Below are positions 7,196 to 53,103 of a stretch of DNA of 64,000 bases, piece after piece (within the stretch, counting starts at the first letter, position 1; the number at the start of each line of letters is the position of its first letter). This DNA is from Pseudomonadota bacterium (GTDB lineage: Archaea > Thermoplasmatota > SW-10-69-26 > JACQPN01 > JAJPHT01). The notes below the pieces were generated by a model. It did no database searches. It saw only the letters and a program-made list of their open reading frames with translations, and was not told the DNA's origin. Both the position numbers and the translations under genes were made by a program. The stretch is taken from NCBI GenBank assembly GCA_021325135.1, contig JAJPHT010000029.1, forward strand, positions 160,001 to 224,000, given 5' to 3'.

Positions 7196-7262
7196 CGCGG
7201 CCCACGCGCCGAGGGCGCGGATGGACCTTGCGGCCGCGCAGCCGGGGGCGCTTCGGACTCAG

Positions 7263-7348
7263 CGCCGAGGGTGAGATTCGAACTCACGAGGCCAGATGGC
7301 CACCAGTTTTCAAGACTGGCGCGTTGGGCCGGGCTCTGCCACCTCGGC
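7263..7348 (-). tRNA. tRNA-Ser(TGA)
   Basis: Reverse complement GCCGAGG...CCAGT-CTTGAAA-ACTGG, long variable arm GGCCATCTGGCC, T arm GTGAG-TTCGAAT-CTCAC. Confidence 0.95.
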
Positions 7349-18659: not shown

Positions 18660-18798
18660 CCGAGCCCATCCGTCAGCGCCCGGGTAGTTAAGAGTTGTTG
18701 GTTCGGCCGGCGAACGTTCCGGGCCCTTCCCCGGCGCCCCCAGGCCTCAGAAAGTTCTTAGGAGGGAAGCCTTGTGGCCCCATCGCCAGCGACGCATT

Positions 18799-18871
18799 GC
18801 GGCGTTCGCGTAGCGGTTAGCGCAGCAGCTTCCCAAGCTGCCCTCCGGGGGTTCGAATCCCCCACGCCGCA
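18799..18871 (+). tRNA. tRNA-Gly(CCC)
   Basis: Acceptor GCGGCGT/ACGCCGC, anticodon arm GCAGC-TTCCCAA-GCTGC, T arm GGGGG-TTCGAAT-CCCCC. Confidence 0.93.
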
Positions 18872-18889
18872 TTTCAGCGGGCACTCCGT

Positions 18890-47669: not shown

Positions 47670-48038
47670 GTGAGTGCACCCTCCGGCCCCTCCCGTCCCC
47701 CCGCCTATGGCAGCGCGCCCCGTGGGCCCCCGCCCCAGCGCCGCGGCTTCGAAGGGGACGAGCGGCGCGGCGGCGGCACGCCCCGCAAGCGCATGATGGC
47801 CCAGGGGCGCAAGGGCCACTTCATGCACGACGCCAAGGCGCTGCTCGCGCGCACGCAGGGCGGCATGGACGACCAGCACGTGCGCGCGTTCCTGGAGGGC
47901 CTCTTCGCCCGCGGCGCGCGCCACAGCACGGCCGACGCGCAGCAGTTCCTCGACGAGAAGCTCCAGGCCCAGACCATCACGCCGGAGCAGCGCCAGGGGC
48001 TTGGACGCCTCGTCGAGCAGTACTCGTTCTGGCGATAG
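47670..48038 (+). CDS. Hypothetical protein
   Basis: Host-like codons, TTTAT box about 30 nt upstream, helical C-terminus ending YSFWR. Confidence 0.7.
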   Translation: MSAPSGPSRPPAYGSAPRGPPPQRRGFEGDERRGGGTPRKRMMAQGRKGHFMHDAKALLARTQGGMDDQHVRAFLEGLFARGARHSTADAQQFLDEKLQAQTITPEQRQGLGRLVEQYSFWR

Positions 48039-48044
48039 GTCCGG

Positions 48045-48917
48045 CTAGATGGGCAGGACGTACTTCGTCGAGGGGCGCACGATGTCCCAGAAGACCATGC
48101 GGGGCTCCGAGCCGCCGGGAAGCACCGACGCCGACACGACGAACTCCCGCTCCTGGGAGCCCCACCCGAGCCGCCACGGAAGATCGCGCACCAGGTCGAC
48201 GTAGCGGCGCAGGAGAGACTCCGGAAGGGGCGCGTAGGCCTCCTGGTCAAGAAGGAGGGTCCGGTCGATCTTCCGCAGGTGCTCCTCTCCCGCGCCCGCC
48301 AAATCGCCTGGAGACAGAGGAGCCCCCGTGGTGAGGCTCCGGCCGATCTTCTCCAGCCGCAGCCGCTTCGAGATGGCGTAGTCCTCAGGCGTGACCAAGT
48401 GGCGGCTCAGCACGGCGGGAAGGACTCGGTCGGCGTAGCAGAGCAGGCGGATGCGCTCGTGAGGCGTCACGTCTCCACGGTTGATGTCGCTCACGTCGAA
48501 GCCGGGGCCCACGATCTCCAGGATCGCCTCCGCCTTGCCGTTGGGGAGAAGGAGGTTGATGCCGTACAGGTTTTCATGGCGGTCCGAAGGCTCCAGGAGG
48601 GAGACGATGCGGCCCATGGCGAGAATCTCCGGGACCCTGGCATCGACTTCGCGCGCCTCGATCTGGAAACCCCCCCGCATGTACGAGCCCCGCTCCTCGC
48701 TGGAGTCCGTGCGCACGAGGACCTTCTTCCACCCCTTCTGCCGGATGGCCTCTCCAAGCCACGAGGCGATCCCTTCGCTCCAGCGGGTCACGACGAAACC
48801 CTCTCTTGCAGGCAGGCCCAGCCGCCACGTCTCGTACGTGGACGCTGTCTTGGCGTAGGCCCTTAGGGGCGCGGGGGTCGCCTCGGCTCCAAGCACGAAC
48901 GCGCCCTCCGGGATCAC
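48045..48917 (-). CDS. Stand-alone PPDK/PEP-synthase N-terminal-like ATP-grasp protein
   Basis: K...LGLPAREGFVVT, VLVRTDS, EIVGPG...RGDVTPH and FWDIVRP echo PPDK_N motifs; GGGAGG SD; GTGA overlap with the upstream gene. Confidence 0.6.
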   Translation of the reverse strand: MIPEGAFVLGAEATPAPLRAYAKTASTYETWRLGLPAREGFVVTRWSEGIASWLGEAIRQKGWKKVLVRTDSSEERGSYMRGGFQIEAREVDARVPEILAMGRIVSLLEPSDRHENLYGINLLLPNGKAEAILEIVGPGFDVSDINRGDVTPHERIRLLCYADRVLPAVLSRHLVTPEDYAISKRLRLEKIGRSLTTGAPLSPGDLAGAGEEHLRKIDRTLLLDQEAYAPLPESLLRRYVDLVRDLPWRLGWGSQEREFVVSASVLPGGSEPRMVFWDIVRPSTKYVLPI

Positions 48918-49984
48918 GATGGCTTCCTCCCAAGGACGGCGACGGGATCTCTGGCCAGGGGGTGGGCCTGGAATCCGCGGGACCGGACCAGCTCCAGGAG
49001 CTCCTCCGGGCTGAATCCCTTCTGGAACGTCCGAGACGTGGTCAACCAACCGTCGGCGCACGCCTGCCACGCGGGGGTCCGGAGCCGGTCGATCTCTGTC
49101 GCCGAACGGACTGCGATGGCCAAGTGCCCGCCGGGGGGGAGGAAGGCGAAGATGTCGTCAAGCACGCGCGCCCGCTCGCGCGGATCGGCGAGGGTGTTGA
49201 GGACGAATGCGCAGTGGACCCAGGTGAACCTCCCGCCAGGGTAGGCCGAGGGGGGCGGGTGAGGCCGGTGGGCCGGGTCCCAGCCTTCGGCTTCGAGGCC
49301 GGAGGCTCGGAAGTGCTCGATGTCCTTGCCCTTTCCGCACCCCCAGTCGAACACGGGCCCGTCGATGAGGCCCTGGCCCACCACCAGCTGGGCCAGCGAG
49401 GAGGGGCCGCGGCGCGACATGGTGGTGCGGCCCGACAGGCGCAGGGTCGCGCGCGCGTCGGGGGCCTCGGGATCGCCCAGCGTCGCCTGGCGCGGCGTGG
49501 CGCGGGGGGCTGACCCTTGGAGAAGCCGATGGCCCTCGATGCGGACCCCGGCCTGCCGGAGGAATCCTTCCCACGCGAGCTTGCGGCCGATGACACGCAG
49601 CTTCTCCGGGGCGTAGAGGCCTGCGGCCTCCTCCTGACGCGTGAGGGCCGCGTACTCCGCGCGCCGAGGGTGGGCGTCGGCCACGAACGCCTCCTTCCGG
49701 TGAAGGATCGAGGGGTTCGAGCGCGACTCCTTCCGGGTGCGCGCCTGGCGGGCGTCGAGGTCCACCGTCACGTACTCCCTCAGCTCGGGGTGGGCCTCCT
49801 CCTCGAACCCGGGGTACCAGGAGAACGTGACGCGCCGGAGACCGCGGTCGACCTTGACGAGGTTCCAGGGGGCATCGGGCGGGACGAGGCGACGAGCCTC
49901 CTCAAGGGTCGCCAGGGCCTCGGAGGGCAAGGCCCGGAGGTTGTCGCGGTGGACGTACCAATTGCCGTGCACGATCTTAGGCAA
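48914..49984 (-). CDS. Putative methyltransferase resembling the DNA-phosphorothioation-associated methyltransferase family (single unit)
   Basis: YVH, FSWYPGF...HPEL...VDL...NPSILHRKE...IG..W domain, then FDWGCGKGKD, GWDP, FVLN, DGWLT..RTFQK. Confidence 0.75.
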   Translation of the reverse strand: MPKIVHGNWYVHRDNLRALPSEALATLEEARRLVPPDAPWNLVKVDRGLRRVTFSWYPGFEEEAHPELREYVTVDLDARQARTRKESRSNPSILHRKEAFVADAHPRRAEYAALTRQEEAAGLYAPEKLRVIGRKLAWEGFLRQAGVRIEGHRLLQGSAPRATPRQATLGDPEAPDARATLRLSGRTTMSRRGPSSLAQLVVGQGLIDGPVFDWGCGKGKDIEHFRASGLEAEGWDPAHRPHPPPSAYPGGRFTWVHCAFVLNTLADPRERARVLDDIFAFLPPGGHLAIAVRSATEIDRLRTPAWQACADGWLTTSRTFQKGFSPEELLELVRSRGFQAHPLARDPVAVLGRKPS

Positions 49985-50663
49985 GCGCCTTCCTCCCTGA
50001 GCCCGGGATGCCCGGCGCCAGGCGGCGCACCGTCGCGACGAGGTCCCCCGTCTTCGGAGCCACGTTCCAGTCGTATTCGTCCCCGCGGCCCAGCGCGTGG
50101 GCGATGCGGCGCCTCATGAACTGGCTCTGGAAGCCCTCCGCGTCCACGACCAGCAAGCCCCGCTTGAGGCCATACGCGCGGACGTACAGATAGGGCTTCC
50201 CGGCGGCCAGCAGGCGCCGAGCCTCGGGGACGTACCCGCCCCGAGGGGCCCAGGTCAAGCCCTGGACAGCCTCCTGCGCGACGCGCGCAGGGAGGGGCAC
50301 GAGGTGGAGATGCGCGTGATCCACGCACCCGCCTCCCCGGCACGATTCCGTGGCCATGCCATGCTCGAACGCCAGGACGCAGCCTCCGTACGTGGCCCGA
50401 AGCGTGCGGACCAGGCCAGCGACGAATGGGCTGAACGCGGCCGCCTCGGCATGCTCCAGGTGCCCCACGGACAGGGCATGCCGGATCGGCGAGACCAGCA
50501 GGTGCCCTTCGACGAGGGGTCCGACGGAGGGGAACGCGACGAGGCCGGGAGCCGTCCGGACGACGCGCGAGGAGAGCCCGGGCGCGAGCTCGCGCAAGAT
50601 GGAGGGCATGGTGGGCGCCAGGGGGTCGAGCTCGGCGCAGAGCTCGCAGGCCGTCTCGGTCAT
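49977..50663 (-). CDS. HIT-superfamily nucleotide hydrolase
   Basis: N-terminal CELC, GPLVEGHLLV.P..H, FEHG, CVDHAHLHLVP, SQFMRR; ATGA overlap with the upstream gene. Confidence 0.78.
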   Translation of the reverse strand: MTETACELCAELDPLAPTMPSILRELAPGLSSRVVRTAPGLVAFPSVGPLVEGHLLVSPIRHALSVGHLEHAEAAAFSPFVAGLVRTLRATYGGCVLAFEHGMATESCRGGGCVDHAHLHLVPLPARVAQEAVQGLTWAPRGGYVPEARRLLAAGKPYLYVRAYGLKRGLLVVDAEGFQSQFMRRRIAHALGRGDEYDWNVAPKTGDLVATVRRLAPGIPGSGRKALA

Positions 50664-51232
50664 GGGCGGCCCTCCGGGGAAGCCAGTTCGGTCGAGATCA
50701 GGGAGGGGGCGAGCCCTTCCGTCCCGTCGTACGTTCCCAGGATGGGGTGCGATCCCCGGATCTCGGCCAGCGCCAGGTGGCAGATGGGCATCATGGGACG
50801 CAGCGTGAGGGGCGTGGGATTGCGGCTGCTGACCTCCAGCGTGAGGGGCGTGGGCCGCGTGCTTCCGAACCCCGCCTGGACAAACGTGGACCCGAGGTGG
50901 ACGTCGAGGCCCAGGCGCGCCAGGTGGGAGAGATTGGAGAGGACGCCCGCCAGGTCTGCGGGCAGGCGGAGCCGCTCGTGGGTGCGCAGGAGCAGGAAGT
51001 CCCCCGGCCTGACCTCCAGGCGGGAGAACTCGAACTCGGGGCCGGCGTTCCTCTCGGCCTCGCGCGGGTCCGTCAGGTCCAGCGGATCCTCGGACTCCAG
51101 GAGGCGCCGGCCGCGGTTCCCCAGGTGGAGCACGAGGGACGTGCTGCGGACGGGGTGGACGGGCCACGGGTCCACGACGAGGCGTCCGGAGAGGGCGAGG
51201 CGGAGCATGCCGCGAGGGCCGATGAGACTCAA
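50660..51232 (-). CDS. Divergent dCTP deaminase (trimeric dUTPase fold)
   Basis: GRLVVDPW, SLVLHLG, PGDFLL.RTHERLRLP.DL.G, SHLARLGL.VH, LTLE, PICHL, YDG..G..PS; TTG start inferred from alignment to the family N-terminus. Confidence 0.8.
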   Translation of the reverse strand: MSLIGPRGMLRLALSGRLVVDPWPVHPVRSTSLVLHLGNRGRRLLESEDPLDLTDPREAERNAGPEFEFSRLEVRPGDFLLLRTHERLRLPADLAGVLSNLSHLARLGLDVHLGSTFVQAGFGSTRPTPLTLEVSSRNPTPLTLRPMMPICHLALAEIRGSHPILGTYDGTEGLAPSLISTELASPEGRP

Positions 51233-51288
51233 GGTTGTCCCCGTCGCCTCGGCGCCTGACCAAGGCTTAAGTCTGTTACACGGCATGT

Positions 51289-51324
51289 GGGAAGTGCGTC
51301 AAGTCTGTCAAGTCAGGCAAGTCC
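51289..51324. promoter_or_regulatory. 9-bp direct-repeat array in a divergent promoter
   Basis: GGGAAGTGC GTCAAGTCT GTCAAGTCA GGCAAGTCC; palindromic CTTAAG at 51266. Confidence 0.65.
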
Positions 51325-51337
51325 AGGAGGCTTCCCA

Positions 51338-52147
51338 ATGAAGGAGACCGTGAACATCGTGCCCGTGGGCTGGGAGGTGGACAGGGTGATCGAGGCCGCC
51401 AAGATGCGGAAGGCAGACCGCGTCATCCTGCTGCGGCGCGACACGGGAACCGAGAGCGCGCGCTTCTTCCAGAAGATCGCCAAAGGCCTGGAAGCCAGCC
51501 GGATCGAGTGGGAGGACGAGGTCGTGGGGCTCGACAACGAGTTCCAGGACACGCTGCGGGCGGTGGCACACTGCGTCCGCCGGGAGCACCACAAGAAGCA
51601 CCGCGTGGAGGTGAACATCAGCGCGGGGGGCAAGACCGCGGCCGTCGCCGCGAGCCTCGCCGCCATGTACCACCAGGGGCGGTGCACGCTCTTCCAGGCG
51701 ATCCCGGAGAGCTACACGGCCTCGAAGCTGGAGCAGGGGGCCGAGGCGGCCGCGAAGCTCTACGAGAACCACGGCCTCACCATCGGGGTCAAGGACGTGC
51801 CCGATCTGACGCACTACCATCTCACGGCGCTTCCCCTGGAGCAGGAGATCGTGCTGGCCGCCTGCACGACCAAGCAGCAGACCCTGGACGATCTGCTCAA
51901 TCTCCTTCGCAAGCACGGGTCCACTTCGTTCCGTCTCAAGCTGGGGAAGGACAGGGACGCGGCCGTGAAGGTCCTGGAGCGCTGGGTCCTTCAGGACCTC
52001 GAGGAGAAGAAGTACGTCGAGCGCGACCAGCACCTCGGGAGCAAGGGGAACAGGAAGAGCTTCCTCGTGACGGACGTGGGACTGGATGCCGCGCTCATCA
52101 CGGGCCTCCTCAACAAGGAGAGGACGCCTCAATTCGACCTGGCCTGA
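51338..52147 (+). CDS. DUF6293/HFX_2341-type CARF-like plus wHTH regulator
   Basis: VNIVPVGWEVDRV...ADRVILL...VEVNISAGGK...AAM, C-terminal wHTH (LQDLEEKKYVE...RKSFLVTDVG); GGAGG SD. Confidence 0.78.
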   Translation: MKETVNIVPVGWEVDRVIEAAKMRKADRVILLRRDTGTESARFFQKIAKGLEASRIEWEDEVVGLDNEFQDTLRAVAHCVRREHHKKHRVEVNISAGGKTAAVAASLAAMYHQGRCTLFQAIPESYTASKLEQGAEAAAKLYENHGLTIGVKDVPDLTHYHLTALPLEQEIVLAACTTKQQTLDDLLNLLRKHGSTSFRLKLGKDRDAAVKVLERWVLQDLEEKKYVERDQHLGSKGNRKSFLVTDVGLDAALITGLLNKERTPQFDLA

Positions 52148-52278
52148 CGTGCCAGGGGCCCCGCCAAAGCATATAAATCGTGCCGAGGATCGGCTCGGGG
52201 CTTGCCCGCGACCGAGAAAGGACAACCTTCAAGTCCGCGCCGCTGGCATGGGCTCGGCGTGGGAGTCGTAGCTCCCCC

Positions 52279-53103
52279 GTGGTTTCGGAGGGCTTCGCAC
52301 TGAAGGAACTCCCCGTCGACGAGTTCACCACGGACAAGGCGTTCTTCGCGGCGCTGAAGCTCCACGTCTACGGCACCGTCCACGACTCCTTCCTGGCGAC
52401 GCTGGTGAAGGGCCGCAGCCTCGTGCTCGACCAGGCCTTGAAGCTGGAGGTGGGGCGCTTCACGAGCCGCAAGGCGAACCACCTCTTCGTCTCCGAGAAC
52501 GGCAGCCGCGGCGGGTGCAGCGCGGAGTTCTACGGCTTCACGTCCCACAAGGTGCGCGAGAAGCTGGCGCAACTGCACGACCTGGGCGTCGTCGAGCTTC
52601 TGGGCAAGGGGCTGCGCGATGCGTACACGTACCGCTGGAAGGTGCCGGTGAAGCACTGGGAGGTGTGCAGCTTCATGCGCTTCCGCAGGCTCACGGCGGA
52701 GGACCTCTCGCTGAACCTGGAGCTCTTCCGCGTCTTCCACGCCCGCGGCACGGCGCCCTTCACGGCGCGCGAGTTCGTGGAGCTCTACGGGCGCGCGCAC
52801 GGCGCGGAGTACACCAGCACGCGCTGGGGCGCGCGCAAGTGGGAGAAGATCGCGTCCTCCTTCGCCTACGGCGAGTTCGTCAAGGACCGCCTCGACCTCC
52901 TGGTGAAGCACGGCCTCGTCGCGCAGCAGGGGGACTCCTACCAGCTTCCCGCGCCTGTGCTGGACGCGGTGAACCACTTCGACCTCTTCCTCAACGGCGT
53001 GCCCTACCGCGCCTCGCGCGCCATGTGCGACGCCTGCCCCCTGGACGCGCTCTGCCAGACCGGCAGCACGCAGCGGCTCATCGTGTCGCTCAACCAGGCG
53101 TGA
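52279..53103 (+). CDS. Hypothetical protein, tandem wHTH-like with C-terminal CxxCPx4C
   Basis: Host-like codons; 'REKLAQLHDLGVVE' and 'DRLDLLVKHGLV' repeats; CDACPLDALC; ATATAAA at 52171. Confidence 0.7.
   Translation: MVSEGFALKELPVDEFTTDKAFFAALKLHVYGTVHDSFLATLVKGRSLVLDQALKLEVGRFTSRKANHLFVSENGSRGGCSAEFYGFTSHKVREKLAQLHDLGVVELLGKGLRDAYTYRWKVPVKHWEVCSFMRFRRLTAEDLSLNLELFRVFHARGTAPFTAREFVELYGRAHGAEYTSTRWGARKWEKIASSFAYGEFVKDRLDLLVKHGLVAQQGDSYQLPAPVLDAVNHFDLFLNGVPYRASRAMCDACPLDALCQTGSTQRLIVSLNQA

Follow-up and report, generated by a model that had tools for sequence, protein, structure and literature searches.

Described systems closest to the cassette

The described systems whose ATP-binding domains are closest to that of the cassette analyzed here are the dikinases, namely rifampin phosphotransferase (RPH), the two-component HpeHI and phosphoenolpyruvate (PEP) synthase/PPDK. 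The cassette is a 4,181 bp block inserted at positions 48039 to 52219 (ends uncertain by about 2 nucleotides) of a 64,000-nucleotide stretch of contig JAJPHT010000029.1; the whole stretch is hereafter called the window. It consists of a minus-strand operon encoding a variant dCTP deaminase (DCD), a HIT protein, a methyltransferase and an ATP-grasp protein, and of a divergent plus-strand gene for a CARF-winged helix-turn-helix (wHTH) protein. With the dikinases, the cassette shares the ATP-binding ATP-grasp fold (Z scores 13.7-14.7), and HpeI is likewise a stand-alone ATP-binding subunit. The window operon differs from these systems in that it contains neither a swivel nor a substrate-binding domain, in the sequence identity of 11-17%, and in that the constant partner of the ATP-grasp protein is a HIT protein.

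Several other groups of systems show partial resemblance. Nucleotide-manipulating anti-phage systems, such as dCTP-deaminase/AvcID depletion, Kongming and the prokaryotic viperins, are small mobile enzyme sets that act on free nucleotides; the dCTP-depletion and Kongming systems employ a zinc CMP-deaminase or an adenosine deaminase plus HAM1 and SIR2. The window deaminase, in contrast, has the dUTPase-type DCD fold. The dCTP-depletion and Kongming systems were rejected because none of their families is found among the five proteins, and no SIR2, HAM1 or viperin is encoded in the window. The Dnd/Ssp modules and the methyltransferases of TIGR04096 are comparable in that the window methyltransferase shares both TIGR04096 domains and some related loci contain a cysteine desulfurase or a DndB domain. 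However, the window protein is shorter, has the opposite domain order and scores below the cut-off; furthermore, the insertion contains no gene for a DndC-type PP-loop protein or ATPase, and TIGR03183 has no match in the 94%-complete genome (SspD was not searched separately), so that Dnd/Ssp was rejected as well. Clusters for nucleoside and nucleotide-phosphoramidate antibiotics include those of the blasticidin/mildiomycin type and that of microcin C, with its HIT immunity protein. Three related loci (L003, L179 and L180) similarly combine HIT, cysteine desulfurase, deaminase, methyltransferase, sugar-nucleotide enzyme and exporter genes, whereas the window encodes no exporter, glycosyltransferase or precursor peptide; the likeness is one of enzyme families. 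Thoeris was rejected given that ThsA and ThsB are not found beside the HIT gene. The HIT protein shows only a weak PADLOC match to ThsC (E 0.051) and no further Ths match; this is the best PADLOC match of the four enzymes, none of which is convincing.

No description of the operon, or of the DUF5919 membrane protein encoded in many related loci, was found in the literature, although mention in earlier surveys is not excluded. The earlier note on this DNA, made from the sequence alone, recognized no named system here, and none has emerged from the present comparison. We rate the cassette as a deaminase/methyltransferase subtype, so far undescribed, of a HIT-ATP-grasp family that is itself undescribed; it resembles a dikinase half and the known nucleotide-manipulating cassettes.

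Organization and horizontal acquisition of the locus

All five open reading frames (ORFs) are intact where the earlier note had placed them. With the start of the deaminase corrected (see below), they are the deaminase (50660..51232), HIT protein (49977..50663), methyltransferase (48914..49984) and ATP-grasp protein (48045..48917) on the minus strand, and the CARF-wHTH protein (51338..52147) on the plus strand. Consecutive operon genes are coupled, as had been described, through an ATGA at 50660-50663, an 8-nucleotide overlap at 49977-49984 and a GTGA at 48914-48917. The GGAGG Shine-Dalgarno sequences reported for the last two genes are present but not limited to them, being found 7-8 nucleotides before the start of three of the four genes (HIT, methyltransferase and ATP-grasp). 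The higher usage of A/T-ending codons holds up as well: 11.3% (117/1031) of the synonymous third positions in the operon are A or T compared to 2.3% (77/3299) in ten flanking host genes (Fisher p ~1e-28), with the CARF gene intermediate at 6.8%. No sigma-70 promoter or terminator was found at the locus.

The sister genome G002, which is of the same genus and 99% complete, has the two flanking host genes side by side, with the stop codon of the left gene abutting the sequence equal to window position 52220. This empty site implies that the insertion, of which the CARF gene is a part, spans 48039 to about 52219; the start at 48039 proposed earlier stands, and the proposed end at 52150 is slightly short. 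The locus is not core or syntenic in all relatives, since G002 has the empty site, and the suggested horizontal acquisition is further supported by a search of 400 other genomes from the phylum, in which the ATP-grasp was not found; likewise, a search of 40 relatives gave no methyltransferase. No integrase, terminal repeat or tRNA is present at the ends of the inserted block; the window contains genes for tRNA-Pro (1589-1662), tRNA-Ser (7262-7348) and tRNA-Gly (18798-18872), all distant from the insertion.

Both flanking genes are conserved host genes of unassigned function which we take to be archaeal, NMD3-like and DUF424-like. The left one occupies 47793-48038. The right one, at about 52280-53103, has a Cys-rich C-terminal end and shows 57-85% identity among the five genomes searched; because the GTG listed as its start (52180) falls within the insertion, the true start has to be farther downstream.

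The conserved HIT-ATP-grasp core and the subclade of the window

Related loci were sampled as 116 loci forming 86 clusters at 80% identity, 58 of which have at least 2.5 kb of upstream sequence; neighbors were counted within 7.5 kb of the ATP-grasp gene, with the window included and soil Acidobacteriota over-sampled. A HIT gene is present in 50 of the 58 non-redundant loci (in one of these, L037, it is a canonical HIT), a Nudix gene in 40 and a membrane DUF5919 gene in 39, the methyltransferase in seven and the deaminase in five; the CARF gene is present in the window locus only. The conserved core of the system is the HIT-ATP-grasp pair, to which one subclade adds the deaminase and methyltransferase as accessories. 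Most of the HIT-containing loci are Nudix-membrane-HIT-ATP-grasp operons, in which the same ATP-grasp and HIT families are usually adjacent and in the same order. The window subclade differs by the presence of the deaminase and methyltransferase and by the lack of the Nudix and membrane genes: in the tree of 61 ATP-grasp proteins, the window protein belongs to a 13-member clade (support 99/97) that never has either of the two, and 10 of the 13 loci carry a deaminase, methyltransferase, phosphoribosyltransferase (PRTase) or MazG. Together with ThyX and cysteine desulfurase, these make up the pyrimidine and sulfur enzymes of the subclade.

All four families are found together in distant microbes, namely in two metagenome loci and on Streptomyces plasmids. 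Locus L003 encodes HIT, cysteine desulfurase, DCD, an ABC exporter, UDP-glucose pyrophosphorylase, methyltransferase, ATP-grasp and a PPDK-like protein, and L040 encodes ThyX, a PRTase-like protein, HIT, DCD, methyltransferase and ATP-grasp. The plasmid loci, L176 (3586-9898; plasmid pSMg1-2 of Streptomyces sp. Mg1) and L177 (strain NBC_01278), are near copies and were counted once; they contain DCD, HIT, ATP-grasp and desulfurase genes, a divergent LysR gene, an EEP fusion of the same methyltransferase domain, and MazG. In L177, the cassette is followed 1 kb downstream by a phage portal gene. Three-family subsets occur in L002, L039, L118, L120 and L122. The earlier note had treated the four genes as the unit; they do recur together, but the fixed unit is HIT plus ATP-grasp only.

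It appears very improbable that these nucleotide-enzyme genes are a random or decaying collection that serves no shared pathway in this genome. Gene order and content do vary among the loci, and split or frameshifted copies are present in L007, L035, L039 and L122; however, the window has four intact frames whose starts and stops are coupled and whose active-site motifs are conserved, and the DCD-HIT-ATP-grasp order recurs on the Streptomyces plasmids with a deaminase of the same SHLAR variant.

The partners that are exchanged between loci include Nudix, MazG, ThyX, nucleoside deoxyribosyltransferase-like and PRTase-like proteins, UDP-glucose pyrophosphorylase, thymidylate kinase and cysteine desulfurase, nearly all of which act on small nucleotides. 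Because nearly all partners either deliver sulfur or use free pyrimidine nucleotides as substrates, and some of the clusters encode exporters, the chemistry most likely proceeds at the level of small nucleotides. As a tentative but preferred reading of these gene contents, the cassette, a mobile enzyme set, may make a non-canonical, probably pyrimidine-derived, nucleotide or nucleoside from free (deoxy)nucleotides for use in biological conflict.

Protein components

The ATP-grasp protein has no Pfam match, there being no Pfam model for the family (465 relatives at 50% clustering), and a search of the PDB sequences with its profile gave no matches. The assignment to the PPDK/PEP synthase/RPH type comes from the predicted structure (pLDDT 94), which aligns with RPH (Z 14.7, rmsd 3.8, 227 aligned residues) and with HpeI (Z 13.7) better than with other ATP-grasp proteins. 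Four homologs have a fused swivel domain with an intact His, so that the family could serve as one half of a dikinase; one of these four lies in a Nudix-membrane-HIT operon. A weak test limited to 735-2095 aa revealed no longer fused forms. In L069 (1139-2659) and L070 (536-2041), an N-terminal MazG/PRA-PH-like domain is fused to the ATP-grasp domain and the gene is convergent with the HIT gene. Long-branch homologs without HIT are present in L029, L031, L032 and L033; in L029, a Woesebacteria genome, genes that we presume, from their translations, to encode thymidylate synthase and DHFR-like proteins are located nearby.

The HIT protein contains PF01230 and the CwfJ_C_1 extension, which defines it as a CwfJ-type HIT protein, and its best solved relative is CWF19L1 (E 7e-14). 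The HxHxH triad (H116, H118, H120) is intact and is accompanied by an N-terminal CxxC; both motifs are invariant in 51 aligned members. The predicted complex of the ATP-grasp and HIT proteins has a score of 0.00, evidence for neither side. CwfJ-type HIT genes are also encoded in a Parabacteroides locus (L178, 3346-8632), between genes for ThyX and an ATP-binding protein on one side and a small ORF and DHFR on the other, with no ATP-grasp, and on the Lactococcus plasmid pUC06C (L179, 5787-8494), with an aminotransferase V and an EamA transporter flanked by insertion sequence elements; the UC06 HIT cluster is not mentioned in the lactococcal anti-phage screen (PMC11381338). A Rhizobium locus (L180, 1176-9332), in which the same HIT family is clustered with genes for thymidylate kinase, a methyltransferase and an anthranilate-PRTase-like protein, gives the impression of an unnamed pathway for a small molecule.

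The deaminase matches PF22769 (E 1e-19) and scores 75.8 bits against TIGR02274, under the equivalog cut-off of 92.8. In the alignment with the separate canonical dCTP deaminase of the host (contig C23, 33% identical), the positions of the catalytic Ser, Arg and Glu, the roles of which are those in E. coli Dcd, are retained and the base-binding positions are altered. Given the sub-threshold score and the changed base-binding motifs, a canonical dCTP deaminase was rejected; the SHLAR variant of the enzyme recurs in related loci. The start is most likely TTG 51232 rather than the upstream ATG 51286 because its register matches the deaminase homologs.

The methyltransferase, a two-domain class I S-adenosylmethionine-dependent enzyme, matches Methyltransf_23 and, with 144.9 bits against the cut-off of 150, TIGR04096, a family for which no literature description of function was found. 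The domain order is reversed relative to TIGR04096, with residues 8-155 matching profile positions 330-476. The fold matches are to small-molecule and heterocycle N-methyltransferases and METTL6 (Z 15-16.5); the N-terminal domain has no fold match in the full-length query and was not searched alone. In the viral contig L153 (234-2858), the methyltransferase is part of an 874-aa fusion with a long C-terminal part of unassigned kind. Overall, the family assignments proposed earlier are borne out by profiles for the deaminase, HIT, methyltransferase and CARF proteins and by fold for the ATP-grasp protein, with the reservation that the methyltransferase falls below the TIGR04096 cut-off.

A role in DNA or RNA modification, by incorporation of a modified dNTP or by methylation of the polymer, akin to the phosphorothioation-linked modules, would be consistent with the relationship to TIGR04096, the METTL6 match, the EEP nuclease-fold fusion in Streptomyces, a methyltransferase relative adjoining a PAPS-reductase-family gene in L154, and the cysteine desulfurases and DndB-domain gene of related loci. 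Nevertheless, such a role appears quite improbable. Motif IV is VLN in the window and VLN or ILN in 9 of 9 aligned members, as opposed to the [DNSH]PP[YFW] motif after strand 4 that defines the N6A/N4C methylases (PMC4738411), so that an N6A/N4C DNA methyltransferase was rejected and methylation of DNA is disfavored. In addition, DndC was not found in the genome, the insertion contains no nuclease gene, and the ATP-grasp and HIT families were not found in IMG/VR or GenBank phages.

The fold matches are also relevant to another alternative, namely that the deamination, methylation, phosphorylation and hydrolysis carried out by the cassette serve to inactivate modified nucleotides of foreign origin, either non-canonical dNTPs of viruses or nucleotide antibiotics. 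Rifampin phosphotransferase and the heterocyclic-toxin methyltransferase, among the nearest folds, inactivate compounds; house-cleaning is the classic role of the Nudix, MazG and HIT families; HIT hydrolases confer microcin C resistance; and the window copy is a solitary insertion amid housekeeping genes of the host. However, the ThyX, cysteine desulfurase, ThiF, radical SAM, UDP-glucose pyrophosphorylase and exporter genes of the related loci are synthetic rather than degradative, and detoxification or pool-cleaning is, on balance, unlikely.

The CARF-wHTH gene matches HFX_2341_N/DUF6293_C and PADLOC CARF3 (E 1e-30) and, like the Csa3/CARF3 regulators, combines a CARF domain with a winged helix and is divergent from the operon. 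Type III CRISPR signaling through CARF was rejected since Cas10 and Cas1 (searched as PF22335 and PF01867) were not found in the 94%-complete genome, which also means that the ligand is not obviously a cyclic oligoadenylate. Genomes of the family hold only a paralog with 28-36% identity. In the 57 other non-redundant ATP-grasp loci, the CARF gene is invariably missing and other regulators (XRE-HTH, HTH-IrrE, HTH-TPR or LysR) are encoded instead, so that the integral sensor which the earlier note had inferred in this protein is not supported. Relatives elsewhere in the phylum have no cassette genes within 1.5 kb (one is near DprA and a type I specificity gene), and the gene is therefore best read as a locally recruited regulator, an add-on to the cassette. 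With the deaminase starting at TTG 51232, about 105 bp separate the divergent starts. This gap contains three direct CAAGTC repeats with 9-nucleotide spacing (51300..51323, plus strand), a candidate operator for the CARF-wHTH protein; the pattern, which was picked after being seen, yields two overlapping matches compared to none in 100 shuffles.

The regulator bears on the possibility that the ATP-grasp protein makes a signal nucleotide that HIT and Nudix erase and a receptor reads, the latter being CARF here and the membrane DUF5919 or a PRTase-like protein elsewhere. The frequency of DUF5919, the three loci with a PRTase-like gene (two with an N-terminal hydrophobic segment) and the arrival of CARF with the insertion in a genome where Cas10 and Cas1 were not found are all in line with a second messenger. 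Against it are the restriction of CARF to this one locus, the phylum relatives of CARF that lack nearby cassette genes and the lack of a membrane or toxic effector in the window; such signaling is distinctly unlikely.

Proposed function and the case for defense

We return to the synthesis of a non-canonical nucleotide as the preferred reading. The insertion, the folds, the intact motifs and the conserved gene pairing are established; the steps below are inferred from folds and gene neighborhoods. The variant deaminase would supply or edit a cytidine or uridine nucleotide, which the ATP-grasp protein would activate with ATP by (pyro)phosphoryl transfer. The methyltransferase could then N-methylate the base or a P-linked group, and the HIT enzyme could cleave or transfer a nucleotidyl group, thereby releasing the product or protecting the producer. 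The product might poison the replication of viruses within the cell or, in loci that encode an exporter, harm competitors. A more specific version of this scheme is speculative and, taken as a whole, rather unlikely: the swivel-less ATP-grasp protein would pass the (pyro)phosphoryl group via the HIT histidine enzyme, or to the HIT product, in the synthesis of a methylated pyrimidine nucleotide that keeps viruses from replicating, and the subtypes would differ in the tailoring of the base (methyl, sulfur) and in the receptor.

The genomic context of related loci suggests a role in defense. In L002 (7763-20555), deoxyribosyltransferase-like, HIT, methyltransferase and ATP-grasp genes are located directly upstream of a type II CBASS (SAVED, SMODS, Cap2, Cap3) and a Schlafen-domain gene; this locus also encodes HTH and IrrE-like regulators. 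Elsewhere in the clade of the window, the neighbors include a NERD-DndB gene (L039), a PLD nuclease (L036), NACHT and reverse transcriptase genes (L005), caspase and patatin (L120), and integrases or transposases (L121 and L122). The earlier note had proposed a nucleotide-acting defense island; the enzymes are indeed nucleotide-centered, whereas the defense role is plausible but falls short of proof.

Several observations weigh against the proposed function. The 150 ORFs flanking 30 mostly Nudix-type loci yielded few PADLOC matches and belong mostly to housekeeping families, a count made with no control set, and neither an effector nor an exporter is encoded in the window. The phosphoryl acceptor is left unexplained because none of the five genes encodes a phospho-His swivel, and the only swivel domain found in the genome sits elsewhere, within a 780-aa PEP synthase-like frame. 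The HIT family is also found without ATP-grasp, beside cysteine desulfurase, EamA transporter, thymidylate kinase, ThyX or DHFR genes. Finally, the accessory genes vary from locus to locus, which makes one common product unlikely.

Implications

Altogether, HIT and ATP-grasp form a widespread enzyme pair that has no name and departs from the usual rule by which the PPDK-type ATP domain travels with a phospho-histidine swivel. The subtypes of this family point to undiscovered modified nucleotides, and the occurrence of the four-family version on two plasmids of cultured Streptomyces makes the question directly testable. If the product is antiviral, the cassette would represent new chemistry for nucleotide-based immunity, in an apparently archaeal host.

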